Source: Schmidtea polychroa
Lineage: Eukaryota
Length of the DNA: 64,000 nt
Reading direction: 5' to 3'
Assembly (NCBI GenBank): GCA_044892525.1
Contig: CM097885.1
Span: forward strand, 24,988,001-25,052,000
The position numbers were made by a program, and so were the translations under genes. Of the stretch, positions 4,052 to 44,251 are shown piece by piece. The notes beneath the pieces are model-generated. The model was given only the letters and a program-made list of their open reading frames with translations. It made no database searches and was not told where the DNA came from. The first letter of the stretch is position 1; each line of letters opens with the position of its first letter.

Positions 4052-4059
4052 TACAAATT

Positions 4060-22534: not shown

Positions 22535-22611
22535 TTGGAATTCTTCAAAAGTTATAACACAATATAATAATTTTATTCAAAATTTGCAAATATACACGTA
22601 ATGAACTGCAA

Positions 22612-22720
22612 ACACTTTATATAATTAAAATATAGAAATTCTAGAAAACAAATTTTAAAACAAACATAAATTCTAGAATTAGAATATTAACAAAACGAAT
22701 GATAGAAAGTTGTAGAAACA
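22612..22720 (-). promoter_or_regulatory. hsp70 promoter: TATA box and heat-shock elements
   Basis: TATATAAAG on minus at ~22615-22623; TTCtaGAA at 22639-22646 and 22671-22678; GAAagTTGtaGAA at ~22705-22717. Confidence 0.75.
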
Positions 22721-23225: not shown

Positions 23226-23693
23226 CAGGGTTACCAACTCGACCATTTTCACCCAAAGACTTCGGGTCTTCGGGTTGAACACTTATGACTCGTTCCAGAC
23301 TTGGTAACCTTGTAATGCATTTATTGAAAGAATTTTTTCAATAATGAATTCCGTTTGGAGAGATGAAAGAAATAAAATGAGAACTTTTTATAAGAATAAA
23401 TTTCAACATGAAATGTGAAGATTTTCTTACATATTTAAAAGCACCAGAACAAAAAAATTTACTTGAATGTTCATTAAAAACAACAAAATATAATTTTAAG
23501 AATTAATTATATTTTCTGAAGTTCCTATTTTTTTAATGTTTTCTTTTTTAATAAATTTTGTTGTTTTATGTTTTATTGTTATTGAATCAATATATTTTGT
23601 TTTATATTCATATGTATATATTATATATTATTAAATCTTCGGATGTAAAAATAATTTCTTCGGGTCTGACTCGTTCCAGACTTGGTAACCCTG
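23226..23693. mobile_element. Non-autonomous hAT MITE (468 bp)
   Basis: TIRs CAGGGTTACCAA / TTGGTAACCCTG with 8-bp TSD AACATAAG; inserted in a local ~200-bp tandem duplication. Confidence 0.9.
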
Positions 23694-23883
23694 AACATAA
23701 GAGTTGTAGATAAAATTCATTAATTTGTAGTAAAAGTTAATTATGAAGTCTGAAAACAAAAGAATATAGTCAAGAGCATAAAATGACACCAGAGATACAA
23801 CTTTCTTAAAAATGTTCTTTTGATAACAATACATCAAAGTTATAATTTCCTCCATAACTATTCTTAATCATCTTGTTTACCAT

Positions 23884-24798
23884 TGTTGGGGTTCAACAAG
23901 AGAGGCACAAAAATGAGGTGAAAATTGGCAAAAACACCAAATTCAAAATAAAAATTTAAAGTACAAAATATTAATTAAAAATCAAAAATTTTAAAAAATG
24001 AATATTTTCTGGGGGAAACTGGTATGGGCGGATGCTGAATAATGAGACGAGTTCAGCTATAATAAAATAAAATCAATGGGGGGTCCCTAAAAGGAATAAA
24101 TTACAAAAAAACAAAAATTAATTAAAAAATTAATTAACTAATGGAAAACCCGAGCTAATGGGAAACCCGAGCTAATGGAGAATCCGAGCTAATGGGAAAC
24201 CCGATACAATGGAAAACCCGAGCGAATTGAGAAATCAAATTTTGGGAAGGCAATTAATTTAGCCGGAGAAATCCAATTTTGGGAAGGCAATTAATTTAGC
24301 CGGATAAAAAGTAATAAGCGCCGTCAAAGAAAATGAACAAATTCCCTTCAATTGAATTAGACCTCCAAGAGGAAGCCCGGGGGAAATAAGACCAAAAATA
24401 ATTGGCAAAAATAAAGTCAATTACCAAGCGAGTATAAAAGCAACTGGCAAGAAAACAAAATGCCAGTTGGTCGAAGAAAAGAAAATAGAAGTTTGAAGAG
24501 AGCGAAAAAGGAAATATTAAAGTTAGTAGAAATAAAACCATTTAAAAAAATCGAACGTACCAGAAAGGGACATCTCCCGTTGGAAGATCTACCCCTGCGT
24601 GAGATTTGGTAAGAAATTGAAAAGTGCAGACAAAACCTGATTGTATCAAGTGTGAGTAAACTAATACAAGTGTAAAAGTGTAACTGCATCAGTGTCAATA
24701 AAGATTTTGTGTTGGGTTATTTATTTATTCATTTATTTATTTGGAAAAGAACACAAAGGAGTCAGACCGTAGTACCGACTTGCATTAAAAACCCAACA
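23884..24798 (+). repeat. 5' LTR (915 bp)
   Basis: TGTTGGGGTT...AACCCAACA termini; TATAAAA at ~24433; AATAAA at ~24697; matches 40323-40892 and 55424-56339. Confidence 0.93.
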
Positions 24799-24802
24799 TA
24801 TT

Positions 24803-24820
24803 TGGTGAGCCCGACGTGAT
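24803..24820 (+). promoter_or_regulatory. Primer-binding site, tRNA-Trp
   Basis: TGGTGAGCCCGACGTGAT, a 17/18 match to the tRNA-Trp PBS TGGTGACCCCGACGTGAT. Confidence 0.9.
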
Positions 24821-25192
24821 CAAAAGTCGGTGAAAATTTGTTGAAATTGTGATAATATTTGAGTGATACCGAAGAATAAAAAGATCGGTGAAAATTTGTT
24901 GAGATTAGTAAAGTATCGGAAAAATTTGGAAAAAGATAATAATAATTAAATAAATAAATATTGAAGTGAAACGTTTATTTGAAAGTGGTGAACATTTATT
25001 TGAGAATTATTAAAGTGGTGATTTTATAATTGAAGCAAAGTGGAAAAATTTGTAACGATTGATTGTTGAAAAGTCAAAATTAAAACGAAAGGTAAATTTT
25101 GTAATTGTAACACTTTGAATTTTAGACGAGTAAAGCCTGTGTTGACCCGATCATTTTATAAATTGAGAAGCCAAAGACTAATAGAGAATTTA

Positions 25193-27025
25193 ATGAGTAC
25201 CCAAAGGCTAACCAATAATACAAATAACAATGATGAAACACCTGTGTCCACGGTGGGCAACGGCAAGGAAGGCAATGATTATGCGAGTTGTCAAAAACTA
25301 CCTGTGGATCAGTACGGTGGAGATCCGCTGGAATTTGTCGATTTTATGGCAGATTACTATATGTATGCGACGGCCTATGGATGGAGCCAATCGATAATGG
25401 TGCAAAGATTACCGCTATACCTGAAAGGAGCCGCCAGAGAAGCGTGGCAACAAATTGATAAAAGAATAGTAGCAAATGACTGGACCAAGTTGAAAGACGC
25501 GCTAGCCACGAAATTAATCGGAGGGGATATAAAACGGATCATGCGACAGAAATTCTATTACCGCGTACAAAAGCCAGAGGAATCAGTAAGTGAGTTTGCT
25601 TATCATTTATCAACTCTTGCAGAGAAAGCGTTCGAAGTGAAACCAGAACAGGCCGAGATGTCAAAGCAGGTAAAAGAATTACTGCAGGATCAATTCTTGT
25701 CAGGAGTAAAGAAAGAAATTAAAAAGGCTTTATGCTATGTTGATTTTAATGACTTTGATGAATTGATCAAAAAGGCAATGAAAATTGAGCTAAATTTAAA
25801 AAGCACACAGTCAAAATCAGAGTCGTTTGCAGTCATCTCAGGCGCAAGCGAAAGATCAGTAACCCCAATTAGAAACAATCGTTTTCAAGAAACAAGTAAT
25901 CCATCACCAAAATTTAGATCCAAATTTGAGTCGAACAAGGCAACAGATATTCAAATAGATGGAAAGGAAGGTCCCATCCAATGTAGTCATTGCCAAAGGA
26001 TTGGACACCATGTTAACCAATGCTGGTTTAAAAATAGAATACAGAGAAGCCCAATTCCGATTCAGTGTGATAATTGCCAAAGAATGGGACATGACAGCAA
26101 TCAATGCTGGTCCAAAAATAATGTACAACGGAGTCCAAGGCAAATGTGGCCTGATTGGTTAAAAGGAAATGGTGCGAAAAGTTCCACTAAAGCGAACATA
26201 AATGAGCAGAGAACTAATGATAACTTACAATGCTTTAATTGCGGAAGAAAAGGGCATGTGTCACGAAATTGTTTTGCCAGGTCAAGATCAAGATCAACAT
26301 CACCATCACCGCAGAGAGATAAAGTAAATCTACAAGGACAAATTCAATGTCATTCATGCAGAAGTTATGGACACATGGCTAGATCATGTCCAAGAAATAT
26401 GGATAAATTCCAAAGGCCCATATTAAAGAAATCGATTAGGTTTCAGAGTGACAAACCGCAGATGGATAATGTAGCTTTTATTCAGCCAGATAATTTTAAT
26501 GAAAGAATTGAAAGCGAAGTGAGAGAAATGGGTCGACGTTTGGATCGATTGATGTCAAAGTTTGAATCAGAAGAGGACTACAATAATCACATGATGTATG
26601 AGTCGCAAGAGGAATTGAATGAAAAAGAGTCGAAAAGGAGAGTTATAAAAGATGATTTAGAAAGTGAAAAAGCAACAATGATAATGACCAGAATCGAAAA
26701 ACTAATTGGAAATAATGAAATAGAGTCGGCTAAAGTGATCAAATCGTTGAGAGAATTAAGTCAAATATCTTTGAGTATGAGAAAGATAAAAAGTGTAATT
26801 AGCTTGTGCGTTAACTACTATAATATGAATCCAAAGTATAAAGAAGAAATTAAAGAATTAATGAAAATATTTGGAAAAGCTTTGAGAGAGAAAACAGGGT
26901 TAGATTCCATCTTGGTGGAAGTAGTAAACGAGATTGATAAAAGTGTATTATGTTGTCGTTGTGAGGCAAATGATTGTGTAAATGATTTAAAGAAGAAATT
27001 AAAAGAAAAAAGGAAAGATGCATGA
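25193..27025 (+). CDS. gag: Gag (capsid-like domain plus four CCHC zinc knuckles) and first helical module
   Basis: YLKGAAREAW, RVQKPEESVSEF and QFLSG capsid motifs; four CX2CX4HX4C knuckles; first ATG at 25193. Confidence 0.9.
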   Translation: MSTQRLTNNTNNNDETPVSTVGNGKEGNDYASCQKLPVDQYGGDPLEFVDFMADYYMYATAYGWSQSIMVQRLPLYLKGAAREAWQQIDKRIVANDWTKLKDALATKLIGGDIKRIMRQKFYYRVQKPEESVSEFAYHLSTLAEKAFEVKPEQAEMSKQVKELLQDQFLSGVKKEIKKALCYVDFNDFDELIKKAMKIELNLKSTQSKSESFAVISGASERSVTPIRNNRFQETSNPSPKFRSKFESNKATDIQIDGKEGPIQCSHCQRIGHHVNQCWFKNRIQRSPIPIQCDNCQRMGHDSNQCWSKNNVQRSPRQMWPDWLKGNGAKSSTKANINEQRTNDNLQCFNCGRKGHVSRNCFARSRSRSTSPSPQRDKVNLQGQIQCHSCRSYGHMARSCPRNMDKFQRPILKKSIRFQSDKPQMDNVAFIQPDNFNERIESEVREMGRRLDRLMSKFESEEDYNNHMMYESQEELNEKESKRRVIKDDLESEKATMIMTRIEKLIGNNEIESAKVIKSLRELSQISLSMRKIKSVISLCVNYYNMNPKYKEEIKELMKIFGKALREKTGLDSILVEVVNEIDKSVLCCRCEANDCVNDLKKKLKEKRKDA

Positions 27026-27414
27026 TAGAGTTGAGATTTAATGAGAGATTCTTAGAAAATGACGAATTTTTGATAGATTGTGGATTTATACCAGGGAGTA
27101 CAAATGAATTAAAAATGGAAAATGTAATTACTAGTGATGAAATAATGAGTAGTAAAATAATAGACAAAAGGAATTCAAGGGAGATATTAGAGGAATTAAA
27201 TGATGCGTTATATATTGGAGATGAAGATGAAATCAATGAGAAGTTACAGATTATTGAGAAATTAGAAATGGAGGAAAACGATAAACTAAAAATAGTGAAT
27301 GCAATACGACCATATTTACATGTGAAAACCAGATATGCCAAGTTATTAAGAAGTTTATTGCAAAGATTGGGCAAGGAGCTCAGAAAGGCAATTTTTGATA
27401 GCATTAGATTATGA
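27022..27414 (+). pseudogene. Frameshifted segment of the polyprotein (second helical module)
   Basis: The only segment out of frame with gag and pol. DEFLIDCGFIP resembles DEYLYDCGCVP in the next ORF. Confidence 0.65.
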
Positions 27415-30400
27415 GGGATATGGCAAAACGGAATATGTAGACGAGCATTGGTGTGCAAAGGTCCGAAAATTGCGGAAGAGAGCGGCTGAAACGCTGGGAA
27501 AAGATGGAATTATTATAGTAATGTACAAAAGTGAAGAAATTGACGATGATGAATACCTATATGATTGTGGGTGTGTACCACAAGAGCTGGATGAAAACGG
27601 ATATTTGATCCGAGACAGACGAGTGGGATATTTAGTGAACCATATAGTCGTAGTAAAAGGAGTGAGTTTAGAAGTAAATATTGAGTCTAACAAGCCTGAC
27701 ACAGAGGAACAAAATGAAAAAGTTAAGGGAAATAAAGAAATTGATGAAATCGTTAGTGATAATGAGCAAAAAGATCCTGATAACAAAGATCAGTCCACAG
27801 AACCAGACGTACAAGGAGAGCCACTTGTACCTGAAGGCGAAATAAATGGTGAAATCAAAAATAAGAAAGTTAGAACTTTATATGAAATAAAGAAATATTT
27901 AGTGAGGTTAGAACAGGACGTCGACGAAACTAAGAAAATGTTGAAACATCTCGTTAAAGCAGTATATCCAATGTTGGACATAGAAGTAGAGGTAGATGAT
28001 GAACTGAAAGAAATAGTTAAAGAGATGAAGAATAGGCTTCCTGAAGTGATGCAGAAATTTGGCGAAGAGAATACATTTTGCGAGAGATCAGTAATTGAAA
28101 ATTTGGCAAAAAATGAAATTAATAAGGAAGTTATAATAATAGTTTTAATTTATGTTGTTTTAGAAATTGGAACCCATACGTTCGCAAGGTCAGACAAGTT
28201 AGAAAATTTGATAGACATCGCTGCCCGGCTAGTAAACGAATATTTAATGAGCTGGGTAAACGAAAAAGGTGGTTGGAAAACACTGTGTTCATCTCTAACA
28301 GAAAAGAAAAATGAGAAGCAAGAAATGAGTCCACCCCAAAGACGAGTAAATGAAAGAGTTAAGCCAGAACTAAGAAAAACTATGATATTTCCATGGGCGA
28401 TGTTTATGGTGATTACGTTTTGTGCAATAATTACACAAACATCATCTTTAGTTGCGTACGATTGTTCCCAAACTGAAATGGGAAAAGTTTATTCGGTAGT
28501 AGATATGTCGGAGTGCCCAGGTGCGTATCCGAGCAGTTTAAAAATAGAAAATGACGTAAAATATTATGTGTATCAAGAGTCTGATCTGCGAAGAACTCAA
28601 GTGAGAGAGTGTATTGTCAAACATACAACATTTGTATTCTATTGTGGTAAATGGAGCCATACGTCACTCATAAAAATGCATGCGATACCTAGGCCAGTCG
28701 AGGTGCTTCCAGAAAACTGTCTAGCAGCATTTCAAACAGGAGAATTAAAAATAAGTCCAGAAATTCGTTTAAAGGCAAAATTGAACCATAGAATACGAGA
28801 AACAATAATTGTAAAGGGAGTTATGAAAGCAAATGGCGACTGTGAAGGTGAACCATATAAAATGAACGGTAAAATTATTCAGCAAACAGTAGTGCTAGAA
28901 GAATATCTCACGAAGTTGAGAGAGTTCGAAGGAGCTTTCGATGATGATACGGGAAAATTACAAACTCATCCATTCTGTAATATGAAACAAACACATTGTC
29001 AAACAGGGGAATCGATTCTTGTTTATAATGTAGAAACAAATAAGTGTAATTTAACGCACTTAAAAACTATGAACTTTAAAGAGCTAGTAGGAGAACAGTT
29101 TAGAGATAAACCAGATAATTTCAATATGAATTATAGACCAAATAATACCATTAAATCAACCCCAGTATGGACAAAGCAAATGGGAACAGTTTTAATGTCT
29201 ACGTTACCAGCAGATGGAATGCGATTTATAAAAAAGGAAATCACAAATAAATGTGGTCGAATGGTATATGTAACAAATTATAAAGGTGTTTACGTGTCTA
29301 GAAATGTTGTGGAAGAAGCAAAAATTAAAATTCACAGAGATGACATTAAACTTACTCATTATTTTAATAATAAAATTGATTATTTGTTTCATTTTAGTCA
29401 AAACATCATGGAAAATGTATATAGAGAAATGATTCTGAACGATTGTAAGTTGAATAAAGAGATTCTCCGAAATCGGATGGCGATGACAATTACGAATCCA
29501 AATTTAGTAGCACCTATGCTAATATCAGAAAATGGAGTGTTTGCGAGAATATTTGGAGAAGCATTATACAGTTACAAATGCAAAGAAGTCACAGTGAAAA
29601 TTGCCAAATACGAAAAATGTACGAACGAATTACCAGTAAGCTTTGGGGGAAAGGTACGATTTATGGAACCGATAACTAGAATCTTGCTTGATGAACAAAC
29701 TAAACCAAAACTTTTGCAATGCAATCGATTATTAGCCCCTTTATACCGATTAGCTACAGACTCATGGATAGCCTTATCAGATTATCGTGGGGTCAAGACT
29801 CCAGACAAACTAGAATTAACAAATTTAGAATACCTGATAAATTTCACATCACTAAACAAAATGGCACAAATGGGCTTGTATGCAAGCGAAGATATCGAAG
29901 AAGCTCAAAGGAATTTGTTGTTTCCATCCAAAAAGGAACGGATAATTTCAGAAATGATTGACACAGTATTACCGAATGGAGAAGGAACAGTAAATTACGA
30001 AAATTTGCTAACACCTGATCATTTCAAACGAGCTACATATAAAAAGATGGAAAAGATTTGGGGCAAGTTCATGTTTTTGGGACAAGCATGTGCAGGTTTA
30101 GTTGGAATTTACGTGATTATGATAACGGCAAAGATGGTAGTGTCGCAAATGTTGTCAGTACATCGAATATACGTAATATCGGGATGGTCATGGAAATTAG
30201 TTATTGGTTGTATTCCATTGTTGGCTAGATTCTTTATTACAGATCATCAATTTAAAGAAATGGCAAGAGTAAGGGCACAATTAAGAAATGGCCGGAAAAG
30301 TGAGGAATCTACGTGTCAGTCGGAAGATAAAAACGACGATCATAATGATGATAACAACAACGGGGAATCGGAGTATAAATGCTTTCGAAAAAGTGTAATA

Positions 30401-32656
30401 AAGAGTAAAGTAGAGCCAGAGTCCAGGTTCTTGCTTGAACCAATGCCAAAATTAAGCGGGATTGATACTCTTAGTAGATGGTATACCCCGACATTTAGAC
30501 CAACAGGACCAGTATATCCAAGTGAAAAACTAAAGGAGATGAAAGCGGTCGATAATATCACAATAGAATTAGAGAAGATTGAACCAACGAGTGCTGAAAT
30601 TGAAAGAAAGAATATGCTTGGTCTACCATGCAGCTATGCACTAATGATAACAGTAGTAGGAGGAAAACAACCTCGAATAAACATACAGTTTAACAAGAGA
30701 AAAGTGGAAGCTTTATTAGACTCAGGCTCAAGTCATACTATAGTAGCGGAAAGTTTCTTGACGTATCAGGAGAAAGTCAAAATAAAACCAACGAATCACA
30801 TTATTAAATCAATGTCACATAATGCACTAAATATTGTTGGAAAATTAGAAGTTAAACTGATAATTGGAGATCAAGAAATAATTCATTGGGTATCAGTGAT
30901 GAGAAAAAGTCCTGTAAAATGTCTTATTGGCATGGATGTCATGGAGCAACTACATGGAATCTCTCTTGATCTGAGAACTGGAAAACTAATAAAAGGACAA
31001 ATAGGTGAAGTAGTGCCTGAAGTAGGAGAGGTATTTCTAAACCAAACATTGGAAGTACCACCAAAAAGCGAAATAATATACTATGCAGATGTTATGAGGG
31101 TCTCAGATGAGGAGTACATATTTGAGCCAAATCAAAAGCTGGTTGAAAAATACGATGTGCCTATGTGTGATGAAGTAGTGAAAGTCCAAAATAAGTCAGT
31201 ACCAGTTAGAATAGCGAATTATAGTGCAAGATCCGTTGAGATAAAGCCCAAAACCAAATTGGGAAAATTAACAAAAATCAAATCAGAGGAAGCTCAGAAG
31301 TTACCGAGAAATATAAAAATTTATAAAGAACCTCAGATCACAAGCAAAGATTTGACGGATTTGCAAAAACAAGAATTCGGTGCATTATTAAAGAAATATA
31401 GAAATGTATTTGCAAAACATGAGTATGATCTGGGACTCACTCAGGTGATTGAGCATGAAATACCATTACTCAACGAAACCCCAATAAAATTACGGCCGTA
31501 CAGAATACCATACATACATCAGGAAGAAAGTGATCGGCAAATCAAAGCAATGAAAGAATTCAATATAATAAGAGATAGTTCCTCACCATTCTCATCATCA
31601 ATAGTAGTAGTTAAAAAGAAGGACGGTGATTTAAGATTTTGTGTCGACTATCGAAAATTGAACCAAGTTACGAGAAAAGATACATATCCTATTCCTGTTC
31701 CACAGGAAATGTTCGATCAGATGGGGGAGGTGCAATATTTTACGGTAATAGATCTTAATAAAGGATACAATCAATTTAAAGTCAAAGAGAAAGATAGAAG
31801 GAAAACTGCATTTTCAGATGGGAAGGGTCTATATGAGTTTAACGTGTTACCATTCGGATTAACAGGAGCGCCTGCTACATTTCAGAGAGGTATGAATTTC
31901 GTTTTGCGCGATATACCACATGCATTAGTGTATATTGACGATATAATAATATTTTCGAATAGTTTTCAGGAACATTTGCAGGATGTGGAAACAGTATTCA
32001 AGCGATTGTTAGAAGCAAACTTAAAAATAAAACTCTCCAAATGTGAATGGGGAAAATCTGAAGTAGTTTATGTGGGTCATATCATTTCGCGTCGAGGTTT
32101 GCAACCAAATCCAGAAAATATAGAGAAAATTAAGAAATATCCTATTCCCAAGGATGTAGATCAGGTTCGGCAATTTCTGGGATTAGCTAGTTATTACAGA
32201 AAGTTTATTAAAAGTTTTTCACATGTCGCACAACCTTTGAACATGTTATTGAAAAAGCAAGCAAAATTTAAATGGACAACAGCTCAGCAAGAAGCGTTTG
32301 ATAAACTCAAAGAAAGCTTAATAAAACAGCCGATATTAAGATGTCCGAACTTTAAAAAACTGTTTATATTAATGACAGATGCCAGTAATTTCGCATTAGG
32401 CGCGGTATTAGGACAGCAAGTAGAAGGGGAAAAAGATCATGTAATTGCTTATGCCAGCAGATCATTGAAACCTCATGAAAAAAATTATTCGACAATCGAA
32501 AAAGAAACGTTAGCATTGGTATATGGGATAACCACTTTTCGACAATACCTAGTGGGCAGAAAATTTGTTGTCTTTACGGATCACAATCCGTTACAATGGC
32601 TAATGAAGCACAGAGATTCGGCCAGTAAATTAATTAGGTGGTCAATTGCGTTATAA
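27395..32656 (+). CDS. pol: Polyprotein segment: Bcl-2-like domain, chuvirus-like glycoprotein, aspartic protease, RT, RNase H (ends in a premature stop)
   Basis: WVNEKGGW (BH2-like); LVAYDC...YCGKWSH...CTNELPV; LLDSGS; RFCVDYRKLN, LPFGL, YIDD; TDASNFALGAVL, TDHNPL. TAA interrupts WSIAL*EYDF. Confidence 0.9.
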   Translation: MIALDYEGYGKTEYVDEHWCAKVRKLRKRAAETLGKDGIIIVMYKSEEIDDDEYLYDCGCVPQELDENGYLIRDRRVGYLVNHIVVVKGVSLEVNIESNKPDTEEQNEKVKGNKEIDEIVSDNEQKDPDNKDQSTEPDVQGEPLVPEGEINGEIKNKKVRTLYEIKKYLVRLEQDVDETKKMLKHLVKAVYPMLDIEVEVDDELKEIVKEMKNRLPEVMQKFGEENTFCERSVIENLAKNEINKEVIIIVLIYVVLEIGTHTFARSDKLENLIDIAARLVNEYLMSWVNEKGGWKTLCSSLTEKKNEKQEMSPPQRRVNERVKPELRKTMIFPWAMFMVITFCAIITQTSSLVAYDCSQTEMGKVYSVVDMSECPGAYPSSLKIENDVKYYVYQESDLRRTQVRECIVKHTTFVFYCGKWSHTSLIKMHAIPRPVEVLPENCLAAFQTGELKISPEIRLKAKLNHRIRETIIVKGVMKANGDCEGEPYKMNGKIIQQTVVLEEYLTKLREFEGAFDDDTGKLQTHPFCNMKQTHCQTGESILVYNVETNKCNLTHLKTMNFKELVGEQFRDKPDNFNMNYRPNNTIKSTPVWTKQMGTVLMSTLPADGMRFIKKEITNKCGRMVYVTNYKGVYVSRNVVEEAKIKIHRDDIKLTHYFNNKIDYLFHFSQNIMENVYREMILNDCKLNKEILRNRMAMTITNPNLVAPMLISENGVFARIFGEALYSYKCKEVTVKIAKYEKCTNELPVSFGGKVRFMEPITRILLDEQTKPKLLQCNRLLAPLYRLATDSWIALSDYRGVKTPDKLELTNLEYLINFTSLNKMAQMGLYASEDIEEAQRNLLFPSKKERIISEMIDTVLPNGEGTVNYENLLTPDHFKRATYKKMEKIWGKFMFLGQACAGLVGIYVIMITAKMVVSQMLSVHRIYVISGWSWKLVIGCIPLLARFFITDHQFKEMARVRAQLRNGRKSEESTCQSEDKNDDHNDDNNNGESEYKCFRKSVIKSKVEPESRFLLEPMPKLSGIDTLSRWYTPTFRPTGPVYPSEKLKEMKAVDNITIELEKIEPTSAEIERKNMLGLPCSYALMITVVGGKQPRINIQFNKRKVEALLDSGSSHTIVAESFLTYQEKVKIKPTNHIIKSMSHNALNIVGKLEVKLIIGDQEIIHWVSVMRKSPVKCLIGMDVMEQLHGISLDLRTGKLIKGQIGEVVPEVGEVFLNQTLEVPPKSEIIYYADVMRVSDEEYIFEPNQKLVEKYDVPMCDEVVKVQNKSVPVRIANYSARSVEIKPKTKLGKLTKIKSEEAQKLPRNIKIYKEPQITSKDLTDLQKQEFGALLKKYRNVFAKHEYDLGLTQVIEHEIPLLNETPIKLRPYRIPYIHQEESDRQIKAMKEFNIIRDSSSPFSSSIVVVKKKDGDLRFCVDYRKLNQVTRKDTYPIPVPQEMFDQMGEVQYFTVIDLNKGYNQFKVKEKDRRKTAFSDGKGLYEFNVLPFGLTGAPATFQRGMNFVLRDIPHALVYIDDIIIFSNSFQEHLQDVETVFKRLLEANLKIKLSKCEWGKSEVVYVGHIISRRGLQPNPENIEKIKKYPIPKDVDQVRQFLGLASYYRKFIKSFSHVAQPLNMLLKKQAKFKWTTAQQEAFDKLKESLIKQPILRCPNFKKLFILMTDASNFALGAVLGQQVEGEKDHVIAYASRSLKPHEKNYSTIEKETLALVYGITTFRQYLVGRKFVVFTDHNPLQWLMKHRDSASKLIRWSIAL

Positions 32657-35362
32657 GAATATGATTTCGAGATAAAATATCGTACAGGAAAGTCAAATGC
32701 AAATGCGGATGCTATGTCGAGAATACCCGTAGAAAATAATGTTGATCAAGAGGAAAATAATTGCGAAAATACAATATTCATGGAAATTAAAACGGTAAAT
32801 AATATAGAAAAATTACAAGATGATCAGGAAAATGACGAGGAATTAAATCAGTTACGTCAACATGCTGTCTCAATCAAAAAGGAGAGTGACTGGAAACATA
32901 TTGTCGAAGAGAACCATAAATACATTATTCATGATGGTTTGTTAAAATGTGTACAAAATGAAAATTTGTTAATTATTGTTCCGACAAAACATCGAAAATA
33001 ATTACTGTTGTTGTATCACGATGGAGGATTAGGAGGGCATTTATCAGCGCGAAAAACATTATCAAGATTGAAACAGAAATATTATTGGAAAACGATGGAA
33101 CAAGATGTCAGACAATGGTGTCATACGTGTGAGATATGCCTAACAAGACGAAATACGGGACGGAAAATAAAAGTTCCGCTTAAGCCTATGCCAGTGCCAA
33201 AGGCGCCAATGGAAATGACAGCAATGGACATCGTTGGTCCATTGCCGGAAACAACAAATGGCAAAAAATACATTATTGTTTTTTGCGACTATCTTACTAA
33301 ATGGCCAGAAGCTTATGCAATGCCAAATCAGAAAGCAGAAACAGTTGCGAAAATATTTGTGGAGAATATTATTTTTCGATACGGAGCACCAAAGAAATTA
33401 CTTACAGATCAAGGAACAAATTTTCAGAGTGAATTATTTAAATCAATCACAGATTTATTTGGTATATTGAAACTTAGTACCTCACCATATCATCCACAAA
33501 CAGATGGTCTAGTTGAAAGATTTAATGGGACACTAATTAATATGATATCATCCTATGTAAATAGGAAACAAAAGGATTGGGATTTATTCATTAAACCATG
33601 CTTATTTGCATACCGGAATGCAGTAAATGAAAGCACTGGAGAAACACCCTTTTATCTCATGTATTTACGACGAAACAATATGCCAGTCGATCTAGAATTT
33701 CAGTCACCTATTTCCCAATATATGGATGTGTCAGATTATAAAATAGCTATGCATGAAAGACTACAGTCAGTATGGATCCAAGCTGGACTTAACATAAGGC
33801 ATCATCAAGAAGCGTATAAAGAATGCTATGATAAACGCGCACGGGTACATGACATTAAAATTGGAGATCTCGTGTATATAAACAAACCAGAACCAACAAA
33901 AGGCTTGTCAAAGAAATTGCAACGACCGTTTAAAGGACCATATCTAGTGTGTGATACGACAGAGACTAACTTAAAATTGCGTCCACAAAACAATAAAAAG
34001 GCTGGGACAATCATCGTTCATGTAAATAGATGCAAGAAGATAATAGGAGAAGATGAATCACGTTATCCATTGAGATCAAAACAAAATAAAGATGCAGGGA
34101 ACCCAGTAATTAAACAAAAGTTTACAAAAAACCCTGCTCCATTGAGTTACATCAATAAAGTTTTATTGATTACAACAGTAATGATTATCAATATAATGTC
34201 AGTAAATGCAGTGAGAGTATTCCCGTTATATGCAACTAATACAGTTGTATTATTAGACAAAGTTCATATTTATTCAACATGTACTCAAATAGTTTGGGTT
34301 TATTATGCTGGAGGAGCAGAAGAAATAGAGATAAATAATCTAATAAACTATTTTGAACCCCCAATAAAATTGAACAGCACCAAAAATATTTATGTGGCTA
34401 GACAATTAACAATGAATTATGAATACCCTTGGGTAATTACGCAATTGGATTCGAAAAGTAATAATACAAAAATACAAAATCTTATACGGATTAATATTTG
34501 GACAAAGAGATTACATAATCGAGTATCAATTGAACCACTGGTAAATGGAATTGACATATATTGGGAACCCCAGGAATCCCAGCAAGTAAAAGCAGTTTTT
34601 CAAAATTATGCGATAGATACATTGAATAGCAGAAAACCCTTTATAAAGTATGCAAATTTAAAATTACATCATAACTATAATATTCTGATTCATTATTATG
34701 AAAAATCTTTATATGAAAACGGAACTGAAATTGATAGCCAATGGATCAGAATACACTCTAGTCAACATATGATACGATTAGTTAATGAAACAAACCGGGT
34801 TACTTTTCATATTTTCAATCAATTAGTGAATGTTACCCGACAAGCGGAGCCCAATCAAAAAGCTATTTTATATTATTATGGAAAAATTCAATCGATATTA
34901 AATGAAAAAAATAAATCTCAAATATTAACTTTTCGTCAACGTTCACCAATATCGACGTCAAAATTTGTGTTCATTAAAATAAAATACTATAGACGTTCTC
35001 TATTTTCAAATTTATGGCAATTAACTTTAGTAGAAAATAAAATTGTGCAAATTCCATCTATCAACTCACAGTATGGAAATCGAAACAAATCAAATCAGTC
35101 CAACCGAACCCCTAGCTCTGCCAACGTAATCATCTTTTCTAGCATCAATGAGTCAATGACTAATAACGAAACCATATCGTCATTAAAAACGGACAGTGAA
35201 ATTGTGTGTGCAACATTATTAATAACTACTCTCATTATAACAATCTCTCTCATTATTCTCATTATCATTGTGTTAATTGAATTTCGAACAATACCCAAAC
35301 CTTCTACGAATCGATCCGAGATTGCGAGACCTTGGGTCGTTTATGAAGAAACATTTGTGTAG
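32657..35362 (+). CDS. RNase H end, integrase (HHCC, DDE core, GPY) and fused C-terminal type-I membrane protein; one internal stop at 32999-33001
   Basis: YHDGGLGGH...CHTCEIC, MDIVGP, TDQGTNF, YHPQTDGLVER, PFKGPY. Then hydrophobic VLLITTVMIINIMSVNA, an Asn-rich ectodomain and the TM segment IVCATLLITTLIITISLIILIIIVLI. Confidence 0.88.
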
Positions 35363-35790
35363 TAAGACATAAATACTTTGCATGCAAAAATTGATAAAGT
35401 AGTAGTAGTAATATAGTATAAATATTTTATGGATATTATTAGTATTTTATTTCATTATGGATATGATCAATATTTCATTTTATTTTACTTGTGAATCTGC
35501 ACTTTTCAATGTCAACGGAAAGAATCAATTTGATTGGTTAGCGCTGTGTTAAGGGGGAGAGAAAAACGGGGTTAAGGGAATTTTCACAAGGGTATTAAAA
35601 GAGGGTAAAATCCATTAAACTCCATTAATTTTGAGGAAAAAAATATATATCAACAATTAACTAAACGGTAATTATTATTATTTATTTATACAGCTAGTAG
35701 CTGGGACAGTATCCTTCGGATACTTCATCTCAGCCCTAGTTTTAAAAGTAAAGTAAATTCAAACGTTAAATTATAACTATTTTAGCAAAA

Positions 35791-37260
35791 ATGGAACAAG
35801 TACAATGGACAAGATCCACCTACGACAGTTACTTCAAGATGCAGAAAAATCATGCCAGCCAACAATTATACGAAATCAATGAAAATTTACAAATTCCAAA
35901 TTATTTGCTGATAGATGACAGAAGAATGAAGATACGAATGTTTACAATAAGGAGAAATTCAGAATTGAAATTGACAGATGAAATTGAGTTGTCTCGGAAG
36001 GAAGAATATCACATACACGTGATCAGAGGTACAGTGGAAGTGCTGAAGAACGATAATACAATATGGTGGCAACTTCGAAAATTCACATCGTGGAAGCTGC
36101 AGAAGGACTTCATGTGGAGAACACTACGAGCAGCGAATGAGGAGACAACGTTGGTGGTGGAAATCAGAATTGAGAATGAAGCAGATGAAGTACCACAGAT
36201 GCATCTAATTGAAGGAGAAGACCCAATGTTATTGAAAATTTCAAAGGAAATGTTGAAAAAGAAAATGTCGTTTCTCAGAAAAGAAATGGATCTAGAAGAA
36301 ATCCGCAGTCGAATATTATTCATTGATGCTGAATATGGCACATCAGAGCAAGGGAAAATGGTCCCTTTAGCAATAGCAATTATGAATTATTATGGGAAAG
36401 TAGTAAAAGATGTATACCTCACTCCAAGAGGAAAAATCCGACATTTTAATTCAAGGATCCATGGAATTACAGAAGTGGCCAGCAGGAACCAATGTGATCA
36501 ATATGTGGCAATGAAAGAGATACAACGCTTGACAGTAGGCAAGATATTGATCGGCCATGATTTGCATGCAGAATTACAATACTTGGGGATATGGATTGAA
36601 CAATTGTACGGCATTCGAGATCTAGCAGCAGCACCAATACTTCAGAACATGGGAGTAACCATAAGGGGAGAATGGTTCAAACTACAAACAGTGGTGAAAG
36701 AAATATGTGGAGAACAGACTCAGATGAGTATTCATTCGGCTCTCGAGGACGTGAAAAGTATACGCAAGGTATACCAGAAAGTGGAAAGTCAATGGATTGA
36801 TGACATACCGATGCCCAAAAATCAACCGTCAAAGCGATATTCGTGGGATGAATATAAGAAGCTTCGGGAAATTGAATCAACATCAACTGCAATACTAGAA
36901 AAACTAACGCAAATTCCAATTGAAGATGTAATGGAATCTGAAGAAATTGATTTAACATTCGAGGAGAATGTGACGATGGATAGTGAAAATCCATTGATTC
37001 AATTGAAGTGGGCCAATGAATCATTCTTAGAAATTGCGGAAGAATGTGTCGCATTAATGGTAAGCATTCCGATGATAAGGATACATCCAACACTTGAATA
37101 TGGTCCAATGCCAGAATGTAGAAAATCCAAAAAGAGAAAAACAACTTCGAACATTGATGTCGGAGACACTGTCACTGTCAATGGTGTTGTATATGAACGC
37201 GAAGAAACAATAATACGATATCGGCATGAAACGAAACGATTAGAAATAAAGATGGATTAA
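35791..37260 (+). CDS. DEDDh (DnaQ-like; REX4/ISG20-type) 3'-5' exonuclease with an unknown N-terminal domain, inside the retroelement
   Basis: FIDAEYG (ExoI), IHGIT, ILIGHDLHAEL (ExoII), IRDLA, HSALED (ExoIII); intact 489-aa ORF between IN and PPT. Confidence 0.85.
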   Translation: MEQVQWTRSTYDSYFKMQKNHASQQLYEINENLQIPNYLLIDDRRMKIRMFTIRRNSELKLTDEIELSRKEEYHIHVIRGTVEVLKNDNTIWWQLRKFTSWKLQKDFMWRTLRAANEETTLVVEIRIENEADEVPQMHLIEGEDPMLLKISKEMLKKKMSFLRKEMDLEEIRSRILFIDAEYGTSEQGKMVPLAIAIMNYYGKVVKDVYLTPRGKIRHFNSRIHGITEVASRNQCDQYVAMKEIQRLTVGKILIGHDLHAELQYLGIWIEQLYGIRDLAAAPILQNMGVTIRGEWFKLQTVVKEICGEQTQMSIHSALEDVKSIRKVYQKVESQWIDDIPMPKNQPSKRYSWDEYKKLREIESTSTAILEKLTQIPIEDVMESEEIDLTFEENVTMDSENPLIQLKWANESFLEIAEECVALMVSIPMIRIHPTLEYGPMPECRKSKKRKTTSNIDVGDTVTVNGVVYEREETIIRYRHETKRLEIKMD

Positions 37261-37800
37261 TTTTTATATATTGTATTTATAAAATAAATAATTGTGAACT
37301 CGATTTTGTCTCATGTATTTATTGGCAGCGCATCAGTTAGACCCCAAAATAAGAATAAATAAGTAAATAATTGAGAGTAAATAAATGATTAAATAAATAA
37401 ATAAACTTATTATTGTGTATAACAACAAACACATTTCCAATTGTCGGGGTTTGGCTACCCTGGACAACAATTGGAAATGTGTGGTTGTCATAGTCATTGA
37501 TTTTTCCATTGAAACCGTTTATGAATAAATGGAACTATATTTTTATCTAAATCTATATTTGTTTCTAAGTTTCTCTATGGATCTCGGTGTCTCTATATAT
37601 ATTTATTCTACTTTATCCCCATGATGATTATAATAATTACTTTCTCACATTAAATCATTTACCGTTGCAAATAGCATAAACATTTCATTAAACAATGAAA
37701 ATTAAAAATCTGTTAATTAAAAAAATTAATTAAACAGTAATTCAAAGAAAATTTTCAACGCTAACATCATTCAATTAGCCAAAACAATAATTTCACTTAC

Positions 37801-37901
37801 TTTTTATAAGCCTTTTTCAAATCATCTCCTGACGTTTCTTTATCGACACCTAATATCTCATAAAAATCCTTCAATTCACTATTGAAAGTTAAATTTATCA
37901 T
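37801..37901 (-). pseudogene. Isolated first exon of a DnaJ/Hsp40 J-domain gene, inside the retroelement in antisense
   Basis: Reads MINLTFNSELKDFYEILGVDKETSGDDLKKAYKK, followed by a GTAAGT donor. No HPD exon recognised downstream. Confidence 0.75.
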
Positions 37902-39828
37902 CAAAACTTTAGTTTATTTTAAAAATGATTGCAATTTAGGTATATGACGAACTTAGGTATATTTTCTTTAAACATTGCTGAATTGATATAAATATAACCT
38001 AATTTAAATAAATAATTAAACAATATTGAAATATTTCGACCTAAAATAAATTCTAATCACTTCAATGTATGACAGCTAATAACCACACCAACAATGCAAG
38101 GTATTCGATAAATTTGGGAAAATTGTTTTCTTTAGAATTTAATTCATATTATTAATCAATAATGAAATGGATTTGTTTCAACCCTGATTATACTTACATT
38201 ATAGATAAATTATCTTAATTGTAAAATTAAATAATGACAATAAATGCAGCGATAATATCATTAAATTAATTTTGTTTTATTTAATCTGGTTTTTTTTGGC
38301 GATTAAGAATTTTATTTATCTTTTGCTGACAATAAATGAAGTTCTAAAACGATAGTAATATTATTAATTGCAATAATATAATTGAATAAAATATCACCAG
38401 CGTCGCATATGAAATTGAATACAGGAGTTTCATAGAATTAAATGCAGTTGTGATAAATATAAATTGCAAGTTACCGTTTGTATTTGATCCTCCATTTTAC
38501 TAAGACAACGACCGATAATATCTAATGAAAGCTGTCTCTGTTCTTTAGTGACTGCTCTATCAGCGAGAAAATTAAGCATATATAAATGAATAATCTTTAA
38601 TTGTGGAAACGATTATTTCATTGCTTTATTTTTTAATATAACAGTAGTTACTTCATTTCTACAAGACATTGATTCACATTTCATATAGCAACTTCATACT
38701 GAGTACAACAAACCATATTTCAATAAATAAATAAATAGATTCAATGATTTTTCTTATTTTTCACACGATATGAGTTTCTATTCAAAGTGGCGTTTTCATC
38801 CACTACTCTTGTCATTTAAATCTAGGAATTTTTCGACAGAGATGGATTAGAAATTGATAATCTAACTATGATTCATAATGGTACGTTTAAATATCACTAA
38901 TTACAAAGTTTCATAAATAGTGAGTATCTCTGCTAAAATTCTACTTAATTCAAAAGCAATAATTTATTAGAACAAATTTAAATAATTCAATAAAATTATA
39001 AATTTAGAATAAAAATGTTATCAGATTACAAATATGAATAAATACCTTTTATTTTATACTTATACGAGAGTTGACAGAGAAAACTCTCAGCAAATAAAAT
39101 CCTAAATTCATTAACTCCGAATCAGAATCAATTAAACGAGAGTTGACAGAGAAAACTCTCAACAAATAAAATCCAAAGTTCGCTGTCAAATTGACCGGCG
39201 ATTTTTTTTCACACACACCCCAAAAATTGATTCAACAGCAATTGTCTCCAATAAACAAGTCGAGACTTATCCAGGACAATCTAAATAATTTTCTTTCAGT
39301 GTTTTCCAAGAATAATTAATTTGATGGAATTTCTTACAAATATAAAGAAGTTAAGTGAAAATGAAAAAAATAATTGACAGAAAAATTTGGAATGTCTTGG
39401 AGAATCACTTAGAGTAGAATAATATATTAAAATATAATGAATCAACTCGTCAAAGCCGCCTCCAACGGTAGAGACAGTAACTCAATAATTATTATAATTA
39501 TTATATATTATTATTATTATTGGAATTTCTACTGGGAAATTAAATTAGGAGGGAAAATAGATTTTTCCAATTGATATTATTATGAAAGCTTTCATTCACC
39601 GCTAACGAGTGGAATTCAATTTCCGAATTTCGAGAAAATATCTAAAATATTTATTTTTCAAATTTTCAATTTATTTTGCTTATATATTGCTTATATATTA
39701 TTATTAGTGGTATAATTATTATTAGAATTAATTTTTATTAATTAATGAATGTCAAATTTAAGATTTAAGTTTTCTTTAGCGTTTTCTTTAGTGAAAATCT
39801 CATTGTTATATAATTATATTTTATTATG

Positions 39829-39831
39829 TTT

Positions 39832-39923
<92 letters not shown>

Positions 39924-39950
39924 TATTATTATTATTATTATTATTGTTAT
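39829..39950. repeat. (ATT)n microsatellite
   Basis: Directly visible. Confidence 0.95.
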
Positions 39951-40308
39951 TATCCTTATTATTGTGGTCATTAGGAATTATTATCAGTATTAGTATTATC
40001 ATTATTATGATTGTTATCGGTGGGAATTATTTTTATTATCGGTAGTGTTATTATCGTCATTATTATTGTTATTAGTATTAACATTATTATTTATATTAAG
40101 TAGTGTGAGGATGATGGGGGAGTCGAATAAGGAAATTTCAAAATAAAATAGCGCAGATTTAAAATCATTGGCAAAGGCAATAGCTAAAATAGGTAGATAG
40201 CAATCCATTTTTATTATTACTATTGTTGTGATTATTGTTATTATTGTTATTACTGTATGGTAAATTAGATTTATTATATACATGCAGATTCGAGGTCGAA
40301 TCTAAATT

Positions 40309-40320
40309 AAAGGGGGGAGA
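40309..40320 (+). promoter_or_regulatory. Polypurine tract
   Basis: AAAGGGGGGAGA 2 nt before the 3' LTR, preceded by the palindrome AGATTCGAGGTCGAATCT. Confidence 0.9.
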
Positions 40321-40322
40321 TA

Positions 40323-40892
40323 TGTTGGGGTTCAACAAGAGAGGCACAAAAATGAGGTGAAAATTGACAAAAACACCAAATTCAAAATAAAAATTTAAAG
40401 TACAAAATATTAATTAAAAATCAAAAATTTTAAAAAATGAAAATTTTCTGGGGGAAACTGGTATGGGCGGATGCTGAATAATGAGACGAGTTCAGCTATA
40501 ATAAAATAAAATCAATGGGGGGTCCCAAAAAGGAATAAATTACAAAAAACAAAAATTAATTAAAAATTAATTAACTAATGGAAAACCCGAGCTAATGGGA
40601 AACCCGAGCTAATGGAGAACCCGAGCTAATGGGAAACCCGATACAATGGAAAACCCGAGCGAATTGAGAAATCCAATTTCGGGAAGGCAATTAATTTAGC
40701 TTGATAAAAAGTAATAAGCGCCGTCAAAGAAAATGAACAAATTCCCTTCAATTGAATTAGACCTCCAAGAGGAAACCCGGGGGGAAATAGGGCCAAAGAT
40801 AATTGGCAAAAATAAAGTCAATTATTAAACGAGTATAAAAGCAACTGGCAAGAAAACAAAATGCCAGTTGGTCGAAGAAAAGAAAATAGAAG
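40323..40892 (+). repeat. 3' LTR, truncated after ~570 bp
   Basis: Matches 23884-24491 with one repeat unit missing and several substitutions. Homology stops at GAAAATAGAAG. Confidence 0.92.
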
Positions 40893-41083
40893 GTCAACAC
40901 GGGGCTTTGCTAATTTATAAAATCGAAATTTACTTTTGACCCAGTTGTCTCGGGGAATGTATGTCCCCTGTGATGATTTTATTGTTGCGGCTTATTTAGT
41001 TGCCTAAGTAAGGAATGCTGCATAGGTTATCATAACCCATAAGTCAACGGGTGGTACAAGATCTTAATCTCTATATTACAGAC

Positions 41084-41448
41084 ATGTCTCAATTCAGTTC
41101 TAGCAGCGACGAGGGCACTGACCAGCAGACGATCACCCGACTCCGGACCCGGTACATTTGGTACCACATCCATCGGTGGAGTCAGGGACGGGATCTGGAT
41201 TGTGCAGATCGAGTAATCCGGACGGGCCCCGAAGTAGATGCCCCGGCATGGGTGAAGGTGGAGCCGGAGAACAACCGGTTGCGGGAGGCACGCGATCAAG
41301 CGGCCTGGGACGTGGAAGTCGCCCAGATGCGACTCAAGAAGATCGAGTTGCAAATCCGGGCAGAAAGGGAGGGAGTGCCCTGGAGGAGTTAGAGGAGGCC
41401 ACGGTACCCCCGAGAAAAAGAGGGAGGCCCCGCAAACGCCAAGCGTGA
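41084..41448 (+). pseudogene. LTR-X ORF-A copy with a 1-bp frameshift near 41381
   Basis: RLRTRYIWY...EREGVP in one frame and LEELEEATVPPRKRGRPRK in the next. Confidence 0.75.
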
Positions 41449-41479
41449 TTATCAGACTATAAATAACTTATTTTAGTCA

Positions 41480-44251
41480 TGTTGGGCTAGAACTGATTTC
41501 TAGACCCAAAGTTGGGAATGGGACGAAATGTGTCAGTACACAACACGCATACCCAGCATTAAGTTTACTTAAATAAAAATATATAAAACACCAAGTAAAC
41601 AATGATAATAGAGAGATAATATACCCAAAAATAAAACATCTGAATTAAAAATAAAATAAAACACGAGCAAGAAATATTACACGAAAACTTACTCAAATAT
41701 AACCGAAAGACATAAAAAACAACAAAAAACAAATTCGAATAAAGGCGATTGTAAAAATTAAAAAAGAAAATTAAAGAAAATCTTCATAAAATCTTACGTA
41801 AAGAAAATTATATCGATATTTTGAATAAAAATCCAGAACAATTCATAAAAATGGCGAAATCCATCATGACGGCCAAACGACCCAATAAAATTTATAAAAA
41901 ATAAATATTTTAGTTTAAAAAATAAATATTTTAGAAAAGAAATCATAAAAAACAATTTAAAAATAAGAAATAGATTGAATTTAGCATGGACTGTTCTGGA
42001 AATGCTGAAATCCATCATGGAGGCAAATTTAATAAAAAATAATTCGAAAATAAAATTTCGAAAATAAAAACAAAAATTCTTACTGAAAAATCGCCATCAA
42101 AATCGATAAAAATTAAAAATCGAATGTTCGAGAATTAAAATAATCTGAATTTGTTTTACTGCATCAATGCACGCATGTATACTTACACGTCAAACAGAGG
42201 CTATATAAACTAACACATTTCGTCACTTTTTAAGGAAGCAAGGAAAAAAATCAAAATGAATATTTTTACTCTTATGCCAAATTTTTGATTTTGATTTTTC
42301 TGAGATTGTAAGTAAGGACGATTTCATTGTGAATTATAAATTATTATTATTGAAACCTTGTTTTCATTATTTCTATTTAATTATAGAGGTGTAGATTTGA
42401 ATGAGATCGTCGGTTATCAATAATTTTGAAGCGAGATCCCAGCCAAACCTGCACCTATGCACTTTATCATTTATGAATGCACAGTTCATAACGATTTCGG
42501 GTCATCGACCCTACATGCACTAAAATCATAATCTTAACCAGAGGTCGCCACGAACTATTGGTGTTTAACCATGAGTAGGGCGTATAAATCCTTCTTGGTA
42601 GTTGGCATAGTCACAGGGACTATGCGGACGAAATAATTATGGGTAACTAATTGTGGATACATATTACAATAGGGCCTATCGTACCGTACTCAGTGTAGTC
42701 GGGAAAGTAGGTAAATTTTAATTAAATCGACCTTTTCGTTAACTTACATACCTAAATTAACACTTAAATTATACTATTTTGCACACAACACTAGGAACTG
42801 ATAAACGGGGAATATCCCCTGACTCAAATTTCACACAATACAACATGCTAGTGTAGCTGGTTATTTCTAAACGAATCCCTCTTAAACTATAAATTCAATG
42901 TGAACCTAAGAAACTAATTAACTCAAAATAACAGGGAGATCCCTGCGCAAAATTTTTTTTTGGCAATTAAAGACTTAAAAATTTTGAACCATTCCCTGTA
43001 AGAATACTGCAACCTAAAGTTCATGCAATGAGTAGGACCTAAGATGATATAATCTCAATCGCACTGGTAAGCGAACTAAAATCTATAGATGCCCACAAAA
43101 TAACCTATTTTGATGCAAACTAAATTTCTCTATCGTAATGGTCTTGGTATGCGCAAATTCCCGTAGACATATTGATAAAGTCTCTTTATCTATAAACTAC
43201 TAATATTATATCTATAACTTATAAGTTCGGGCAACATCTTCACATTATTCTACACTAAATTGAATAGACTCTAAACTAACTATAAAAATACAAATCGTAA
43301 ACCCATAAAAGTATAAATTATCCTCTCAATTTCATAAAAATGTGAATTATACTTATAGATTTAATTTCTTCAAAATGTAAATTACGATTAGTTATAAAGG
43401 TATAAATTATAAATTTAATTTCTTGAAATTATAAATTACAAATTTGTATTGACGATAAAAATTATAAATTATAATCTTAACTTCATAAAAATATAAATTA
43501 TAAAATTATATTAGCTTTGGAAATATAAACTATAAATTGAACTTCACCAAATATAAATTATAGACTTAAAAGTATAAATTATAAAATTATATGGGCTCTA
43601 AAATATAAACTATAAATTTAACTTCATAAAAATATAAATTATAAAATTATATTAGCTTTAAAATATAAACTATAAATTTAACTGAACTTCATAAAATATA
43701 AATTATAAACTTAAAAGTATAAATTATAAAATTATATTAGCTTTAAAATATAAACTATAAATTTAACTTAACTTCATAAAATATAAATTATAAACTTAAA
43801 AGTATAAATTATAAAATTATATTAGCTTTAGAAATATAAACTATAAATTTAACTTCATAAAAATATAAATTATAAACTTATATTAGCTGAAAGACTATAA
43901 ATTATAAGCTTAATTTGGTCATAAAAGTATAAAATATAAACTACGTTAGCGATAAAAATATAATCTATAATAAGTTGTAAATATTTTATAAATACCCCCC
44001 CCCCCCCAAGTTACGTAATGGTCGAAACAAATGTCCAGATTCATAATCTAACTTATATATGTATATTTGAAACTTATAGAAGTATAACTTACCTTTTTCA
44101 CGAGTACCCCCCTCAAACTTATACATGCTAAATTGGCTTATTTTAATATATATTTAACTTACATTATAATAAAAAATATAAGTGGTAAAATTTCCTAAAT
44201 GACCCCCCTCAAATTATATATTTATCTAAATTTACACTAAGATAGACTACT

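Follow-up and report, generated by a model that had tools for sequence, protein, structure and literature searches.

A recently active Ty3/Gypsy family in Schmidtea polychroa with a predicted fibronectin-III membrane tail and an ISG20-like exonuclease reading frame

An element in a 64,000-nt stretch of Schmidtea polychroa DNA (assembly GCA_044892525.1, contig CM097885.1, positions 24,988,001 to 25,052,000; hereafter the window) raises the question which cargo a Ty3/Gypsy retrotransposon keeps from copy to copy and how much of it has been described before. An original prediction, made from the letters alone, had read it as one unit bounded by long terminal repeats (LTRs), with gag and pol plus four extra modules, namely a BH2-bearing Bcl-2-like domain, a chuvirus-type glycoprotein, a second type-I membrane protein and a DEDDh exonuclease. 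LTRs, primer-binding site (PBS), polypurine tract and Pfam domains were all found, in agreement with this outline, and the unit is a broken copy of a recently active, high-copy family. Two of its modules, a membrane tail fused to the integrase and a separate exonuclease open reading frame (ORF), are under purifying selection. All coordinates are positions within the window, and all parts of the element lie on its plus strand.

Whether the cargo belongs together was answered by other copies in the genome. In these, one frame of 3,437 codons holds Gag, two helical/ubiquitin-like repeats, a Bcl-2-like domain, a class III fusion Env, protease, reverse transcriptase (RT), RNase H, integrase and the membrane tail, with the exonuclease ORF following separately. 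Of 102 scored matches obtained by searching the genome for the tail with an outside homologue, 12 fell within an open frame of 3,437 codons and another 9 within frames of 3,329-3,435 codons; Gag to membrane tail is therefore encoded by the family as a single polyprotein. The region that is frameshifted in the window copy reads in a single frame in 7 of 9 other loci, the stop positions 32654 and 32999 are open in 5/5 and 4/4 other copies covering them, and the integrase frame continues into the tail in all three copies covering that junction. All four predicted modules are present, but three of them, the Bcl-2-like domain, Env and the membrane protein, belong to a Gag-Pol polyprotein and are not separate genes. 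In a related lineage (frames up to 3,334 codons) Env and tail likewise share one open frame.

With 3.25 kb of Bcl2-Env DNA as query, 40/40 scored matches among 1,084 candidates were at 98-100%, and nuclease-domain DNA gave 150/150 scored matches at 95-100% among 1,274 candidates, both counts being lower bounds. The exonuclease lies 9.2-9.5 kb downstream in at least 29 of the 40 Bcl2-Env matches, the window's own included (a lower bound, the exonuclease matches compared being those near Bcl2-Env matches), so that the cargo order recurs in the unit of about 17 kb, as the original prediction had proposed to check. Of the six copies retrieved, three show a complete LTR pair that differs by 0.11-0.55% and is flanked by 4-bp target-site duplications; two others are truncated, and the portions read of the last one contain no 3' LTR. 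The window copy is made up as follows.

23884..24798, plus strand: 5' LTR, 915 bp, TGTTGGG...CCCAACA, with identical ends in five other copies
24803..24820, plus strand: PBS, 18 nt, beginning 4 nt past the 5' LTR
25070..27025, plus strand: Gag frame, retrotransposon Gag with CCHC knuckles, entering the first helical/ubiquitin-like unit, with a frameshift near 27000
26633..27590 (approximate), plus strand: two tandem helical/ubiquitin-like units, in three frames in this copy
28004..28276, plus strand: divergent Bcl-2-like domain with BH2-type WVNEKGGW and no NWGR-type BH1
28379..28435, plus strand: internal hydrophobic stretch, from hydropathy
28442..30142, plus strand: Env, chuvirus/gB-type class III fusion glycoprotein with 14 cysteines and a transmembrane (TM) helix at 30086-30142
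30665..32653, plus strand: protease, RT and RNase H, this copy having stops in frame at 32654 and 32999
33002..34129, plus strand: integrase, with H2C2 zinc finger, rve core and C-terminal domain
34130..35362, plus strand: putative type-I membrane protein (tail), in frame after the integrase; signal-like stretch 34157-34213, predicted fibronectin type III (FN3) domains at about 34241-35056 (two confident, one tentative), stalk, TM 35222-35278, C-terminal ETFV
35791..37260, plus strand: separate exonuclease ORF, 489 aa, with an ISG20/ISG20L2-like DEDDh domain at about 36319-36774
37261..40322, plus strand: non-coding 3' region of about 3 kb, with an ATT microsatellite and the polypurine tract at its end
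about 40309-40320, plus strand: polypurine tract, directly before the 3' LTR
40323..40892, plus strand: 3' LTR, breaking off after 570 bp

The tail is described as a type-I membrane protein, as in the original prediction, because of the hydrophobic stretch at 34157, 12 N-glycosylation sequons and the TM stretch at 35222. It is predicted to fold as tandem FN3 domains: AlphaFold2 (14-row alignment) gave two beta-sandwich domains with a predicted local distance difference test (pLDDT) of 85-93 in most 10-residue blocks and lower values in loops, and Foldseek put fibronectin FN3 arrays at the top (E 2.7e-8). VIA-align led to Z 10.3 for fibronectin FN4-7 (root-mean-square deviation (rmsd) 10.7, 154 aligned) and Z 9.2 for CD45 FN3 (rmsd 1.8, 74 aligned); structural look-alikes include the FN3 domains of CD45, Tie2 and DCC, and viral matches were generic FN3/Ig proteins. 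The ESM Atlas neighbours are FN3 and cytokine-receptor proteins, nearest FNDC4/5/9 and cytokine-receptor ectodomains, a weak lead with scores of 0.85-0.90 and recognition below the tool threshold. A profile search of 1.84 billion proteins returned six distant homologues, none informatively named. No significant sequence repeat was detected among the FN3 domains, and an origin of the tail by duplication of Env was ruled out (hhalign probability 0.2%).

The tail frame ends in ETFV or ETWV in 17 of 20 loci, over 40-98% tail identity, the other three probably differing through breaks, and three of the six outside homologues end in S/T-x-hydrophobic (two of the others are partial, one diverges). 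By sequence, this end matches the definition of a class I PDZ-binding motif given in PMC4810129; the short cytoplasmic end carries no signalling domain. The ratio of nonsynonymous to synonymous substitution rates (dN/dS; Nei-Gojobori, dS unsaturated, base composition uncorrected) was 0.18-0.34 for the tail, and 0.18-0.19 at a dS of 0.07-0.13 between closely related subfamilies. FN3 fold and PDZ-binding motif, like the duplicated helical and ubiquitin-like unit treated below, go beyond what had been predicted.

The exonuclease ORF, compared by sequence with solved relatives, matched ISG20L2 (E 2e-11) and ISG20 (E 1.8e-8), and a profile search led to E 2e-16 and 5e-14, respectively. Pfam RNase_T reached 20 bits against a cut-off of 24, and 37.2 bits with the outside homologue P0002; of 4,510 similarly long candidates, only one was an outside homologue. 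The catalytic D-x-E, GHDL..E and H..ED are kept in 20/20 loci. From these matches the ORF reads as a DEDDh exonuclease of the ISG20/ISG20L2 group with predicted activity, and the original assignment is upheld. In the same 20 loci, which were picked by the outside exonuclease homologue and belong to lineages with about 80%, 52% and 34-40% identity to the window ORF, the tail is always found upstream, with 255-512 nt between the end of its frame and the exonuclease ATG, and tail and exonuclease stand in tandem in at least four lineages of the genome. For the whole ORF dN/dS was 0.11-0.18 (Nei-Gojobori, where dS is unsaturated), and against the nearest lineage 0.06-0.10 for the nuclease domain alone and 0.12-0.26 for the N-terminal (35791-36240) and C-terminal (36800-37257) parts; past the nearest lineage dS is saturated in most comparisons, and the ratios carry no correction for base composition. 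The flanking parts showed no clear family, with a weak match to DUF7881_N (E 0.004), and a basic KKRK stretch in the C-terminal part could be a nuclear signal.

When the window is compared with its nearest lineage, the exonuclease has a dS of 0.5-1.0 and the tail one of 0.07-0.13, a discrepancy suggesting that subfamilies have exchanged cassettes. Such an exchange is likewise indicated by two copies (L018, L024) in which, compared with window positions 37282-39800, both the exonuclease allele and the non-coding 3' region are different while the backbone is 96-98% identical. By eye only, a possible splice donor was noted near 24609 (donor-like sites at 24600-24660 in the LTR) and a possible acceptor near 35693 (acceptor-like site at 35670-35695) ahead of the exonuclease ATG; together they would permit a subgenomic message.

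Upstream of Env, the helical/ubiquitin-like unit, some 150 aa long, occurs twice; the internal repeat score is 79, against 36+/-6.6 for shuffles, of which 0/1000 reach it. Each unit consists of four predicted helices, a four-helix bundle in a low-confidence model, followed by a ubiquitin-like stretch with weak matches only (Pfam ubiquitin E 0.056; an ESM Atlas lead at 0.76). Foldseek gave no match for the bundles at E 0.001, and a TFIIS-N-like identity is not claimed, the Elongin-A TND being ranked only 41st (Z 7.5) among generic helical bundles. The model of the ubiquitin-like/Bcl-2 region, built from six 98%-identical rows, has a mean pLDDT of 37.9. The Bcl-2-like domain matches PF00452, with E 0.0076 for the ORF of the window and E 2.7e-4 for the domain excised from another copy. 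Judged by the BH1 and BH2 motif consensus, it has a BH2-type W...GGW that aligns to Bcl-xL and lacks an NWGR-type BH1 signature, and the PDB list headed by Bcl-xL and relatives (all E>0.3) is reached via BH2 alone. Because Burro elements have BCL2 at the same place (see below), it is probably a divergent Bcl-2 homologue; an anti-apoptotic function cannot be assumed. Judging from hydropathy, the stretch at 28379-28435 likely has two roles, anchoring the Bcl-2-like domain in the membrane and acting as the signal sequence of Env. A Bcl-2-like domain was also seen in another multi-copy polyprotein lineage with frames of about 3,050 codons, and many shorter multi-copy Bcl-2-like matches in the genome carry an internal TAG.

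Env matched PF24664 (Monjiviricetes_fusion) with E 2.7e-84, confirming the predicted chuvirus-type glycoprotein; chuviruses belong to Monjiviricetes. No meaningful sequence match to Env was found in the PDB, and its open frame and 14 cysteines are kept in many copies. The Pfam order is Gag with CCHC knuckles (Retrotrans_gag E 3.9e-7, zf-CCHC E 2.3e-10), Bcl-2, Monjiviricetes fusion glycoprotein, protease (RVP E 5.7e-6), RT (RVT_1 E 1.9e-32), RNase H (RT_RNaseH E 1.7e-36) and integrase (E 2.6e-17 and 2.9e-12). A dUTPase-like assignment for a region of fitting size between protease and RT, the place of such a domain in Burro, is unsupported, with no Pfam match and no relevant PDB match. TG...CA LTRs, a tRNA PBS, a polypurine tract, target-site duplications and the pol order protease-RT-RNase H-integrase are the features of Ty3/Gypsy (Metaviridae), and Env upstream of the protease together with near-identical copies places the family in the GAG-ENV-POL HSV/gB-type errantivirus group.

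Without its leading TGG (CCA end), the PBS is the complement of the 3' end of a tRNA-like unit that is tandemly arrayed in the genome. The PBS complement with the T-loop in front, without the CCA end, had 823 genome matches (<=1 mismatch) and the reversed control had none. The unit is presumably tRNA-Trp; most of the listed PBS matches lie in a 284-bp tandem array of it, from C4:55022433 onward. The window copy itself is decayed: its frame is shifted near 27000 and again near 27380 and interrupted by stops at 32654 and 32999, and its 3' LTR is truncated. The predicted end at 40892 is a real boundary but not the full LTR end, as the 3' LTR breaks off there. Its LTR pair shows 2.3% mismatches and one indel, and a target-site duplication cannot be read because the 3' LTR is cut and another repeat follows. 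In the 3' region, ATG-ORFs of at least 60 aa are confined to the microsatellite and its ATT-rich flank.

That following repeat (40893-42500) is 94% identical to a flank in copy L012, weakly similar to 11300-11979 inverted, and contains a 118-codon frame (41036-41392) without a Pfam match. A 5.3-kb segmental duplication (99.6%) links 20024-25311 with 51564-56852 and holds an Hsp70-like ORF (20524-22296, minus strand), the 5' LTR, PBS and Gag start; the third 'LTR' at 55424 is thus a duplicate and not a fresh insertion. Further dispersed repeats of 80-87% identity lie at 3166-4058, 6245-7696, 49250-50567 and 62284-63751.

What might such a polyprotein do? The window copy is a decayed member of a Ty3/Gypsy family that was active recently and is of the known GAG-ENV-POL kind (HSV/gB-type errantivirus, related to Burro), with two extra selected modules. 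Starting from the observed anatomy, copy number and conservation and from the modelled folds of the tail, we see about even chances that the FN3-TM-PDZ protein of this family works with Env at cell contacts. The polyprotein would cross the membrane of the endoplasmic reticulum (ER) four times, by a signal, the Env TM, a second signal and the tail TM, so that Gag, the ubiquitin-like and Bcl-2-like parts and Pol would lie on the cytosolic side, and Env together with the FN3 ectodomain on the luminal one. The parts would be freed by signal peptidase and the element protease, the Bcl-2-like domain staying membrane-anchored. Since Env and tail share a frame in at least two lineages, their co-expression is fixed; the FN3-TM-PDZ protein would be made one-to-one with Env and most likely partner it at the cell surface, where its FN3 domains would bind a partner on the neighbouring cell and the PDZ motif would send it to junctions, so that transfer by the fusogen would depend on contact. 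Survival or signalling of the host cell would probably be modulated by the Bcl-2-like and ubiquitin-like modules, and the ISG20-like enzyme, from its own message, would probably trim single-stranded RNA/DNA by-products or guide RNAs. Extended to complex enveloped retroelements as such, the proposal would be a two-part entry, with a class III fusogen and an FN3 attachment/adhesion protein that a PDZ motif would send to junctions, both being cleaved out of an ER-threading, flavivirus-like Gag-Env-Pol polyprotein, and with a captured ISG20-like nuclease, antiviral in other settings, directed against the host's small RNAs or its sensing of nucleic acids; this wider version is doubtful and put forward only tentatively.

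Several observations weigh against a partnership of tail and Env at cell contacts and against the module assignments behind it, and the four-crossing topology is predicted from hydropathy only. FN3 is a very common fold that reveals no function; Pfam found no match in the tail, nor fn3 in any of the 14 alignment members, and a third, N-terminal tail domain has a pLDDT near 50. Fold matches were obtained for the tail but not for the Bcl-2-like region, whose model (pLDDT about 40) is unreliable and without a fold match. Here the predicted BH2-bearing domain holds as to its BH2-type motif and its coverage of all 100 PF00452 positions and falls short in lacking BH1 and in scoring 17.2 and 21.9 bits vs the gathering cut-off of 31.4; no outside homologue of the ubiquitin-like/Bcl-2 region was found among 8,000 and 2,644 candidates. 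In the exonuclease, Glu replaces the ISG20 ExoII Asp in all copies, and nuclease activity is uncertain because of it, if the residues of ExoI, II and III, including this Asp, have the catalytic roles that we assume. The two most diverged lineages, finally, show the link of tail and exonuclease to Bcl-2 and Env in at most one internally shortened copy (C52).

Possible, if on the unlikely side, is an FN3-TM-PDZ protein that acts independently of Env, a captured receptor or adhesion fragment serving as decoy, superinfection block or polarity modulator in a mainly intracellular element. The nearest look-alikes of the tail (FNDC4/5/9 and cytokine-receptor ectodomains, below the tool threshold, and the FN3 of CD45, Tie2 and DCC) would suit such a fragment, as would its short cytoplasmic end without signalling domain, and viral PDZ motifs often upset polarity instead of helping entry (PMC4810129); the frame shared with Env in at least two lineages and an Env that retains its cysteines and open frame in many copies speak for the partnership instead. 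A weaker case is that the cargo (Bcl-2, ubiquitin-like, nuclease) keeps stem cells with new insertions alive or lets them outcompete neighbours, Env and tail being vestiges of an older infectious phase. The Bcl-2-like domain of the lineage with frames of about 3,050 codons and the BIR and BCL2 reported for Burro (PMC6431247) are in line with it, but the tail is not vestigial, because it is under purifying selection even between close subfamilies (dN/dS 0.18-0.19 at dS 0.07-0.13), and we regard this account as improbable. Functionless passengers, for which the broken window copy and the 3' region differing between subfamilies might be cited, are contradicted for tail and exonuclease by dN/dS of 0.06-0.34, invariant catalytic residues and a C-terminal motif conserved across 40-50% protein identity, and hardly deserve consideration.

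How much of this is new depends on the known relatives, and the headline architecture, Gag-Ubl-BCL2-Env-protease in one frame (Ubl, ubiquitin-like), is already known. It was published for Burro/GYPSM1 (Jurka 2007; Grohme 2018; both through the review PMC6431247), where Gag-CCHC, Ubi/SUMO-like, BCL2 and a mononegavirus-like Env precede protease, RT, RNase H and integrase in frame, and Burro elements were proposed there as proviruses meddling with apoptosis. The window element shares the Ubl-BCL2-Env order between Gag and protease, with Ubl and Bcl-2 matches that are weak here. It is not Burro by size or domain list: Burro exceeds 30 kb, with a polyprotein of 4,873 aa (about 4,900-5,100), vs about 17 kb and 3,437 codons here, and carries MATH, BIR, ankyrin and Smc motifs, none of which was found in the window element in Pfam at E up to 1. 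The review mentions neither an FN3 tail nor a DEDD ORF.

A near relative is found among the six Schmidtea mediterranea GAG-ENV-POL elements, Smed_errantivirus_1 to 6, catalogued by Chary and Hayashi (PMC13524379). Platyhelminthes_Rhabditophora_Smed_errantivirus_1 and _2 share with our family the GAG-ENV-POL order, a gB/chuvirus-type Env and multiple copies (45 of Smed_errantivirus_1), and the source table gives 63.7% between the two. In the only stretch compared, 251 aa of Env, 197/251 residues are identical to Smed_errantivirus_1 (about 78%, counted by hand), and on this stretch the window family would be its sister and not the same family. The main text of PMC13524379 names no Bcl, exonuclease, fibronectin, ubiquitin or accessory part, and its table gives no LTR or PBS for the Smed elements. 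Thus the novelty that the original prediction wished to see tested against catalogued elements does not extend to the overall architecture. It narrows to the integrase-fused FN3-TM-PDZ tail and the ISG20-like DEDDh ORF, of which no description in such elements was found in the literature searched; either may be annotated in Repbase, in the supplement of Grohme 2018 or in the repository of Chary and Hayashi.

As the spread of Env-bearing retrotransposons outside Drosophila is an open question (PMC13524379), tail and nuclease offer two small, separately testable handles on it in a tractable stem-cell model animal, and, being selected, they hint that the life cycle is more complex than so far described and may run from cell to cell. 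Each has a partial counterpart. DnaQ-like exonucleases are among the known accessory domains (PMC6338049), and the bdelloid rotifer LTR retrotransposons Juno and Vesta carry a 3'-5' exonuclease as ORF3 (PMC5408684), likewise a separate ORF downstream of pol and with a D-to-E motif change; theirs is DEDDy/RNase D-like and most members of their clades lack env, whereas the window element combines a DEDDh/ISG20-like ORF with Env. PMC8532177 and PMC11410931 serve as context only. For the tail, the Env of HTLV-1 (a human T-cell leukaemia virus) has a class I PDZ-binding motif that directs it to cell contacts (PMC4810129), and a C-terminal S/T-x-hydrophobic motif on a membrane protein of a retroelement is common to both; in HTLV-1 it sits on Env itself and here on a separate FN3 protein, so that the analogy is functional only. 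Set beside these systems, tail and nuclease widen the known cargo of LTR elements.

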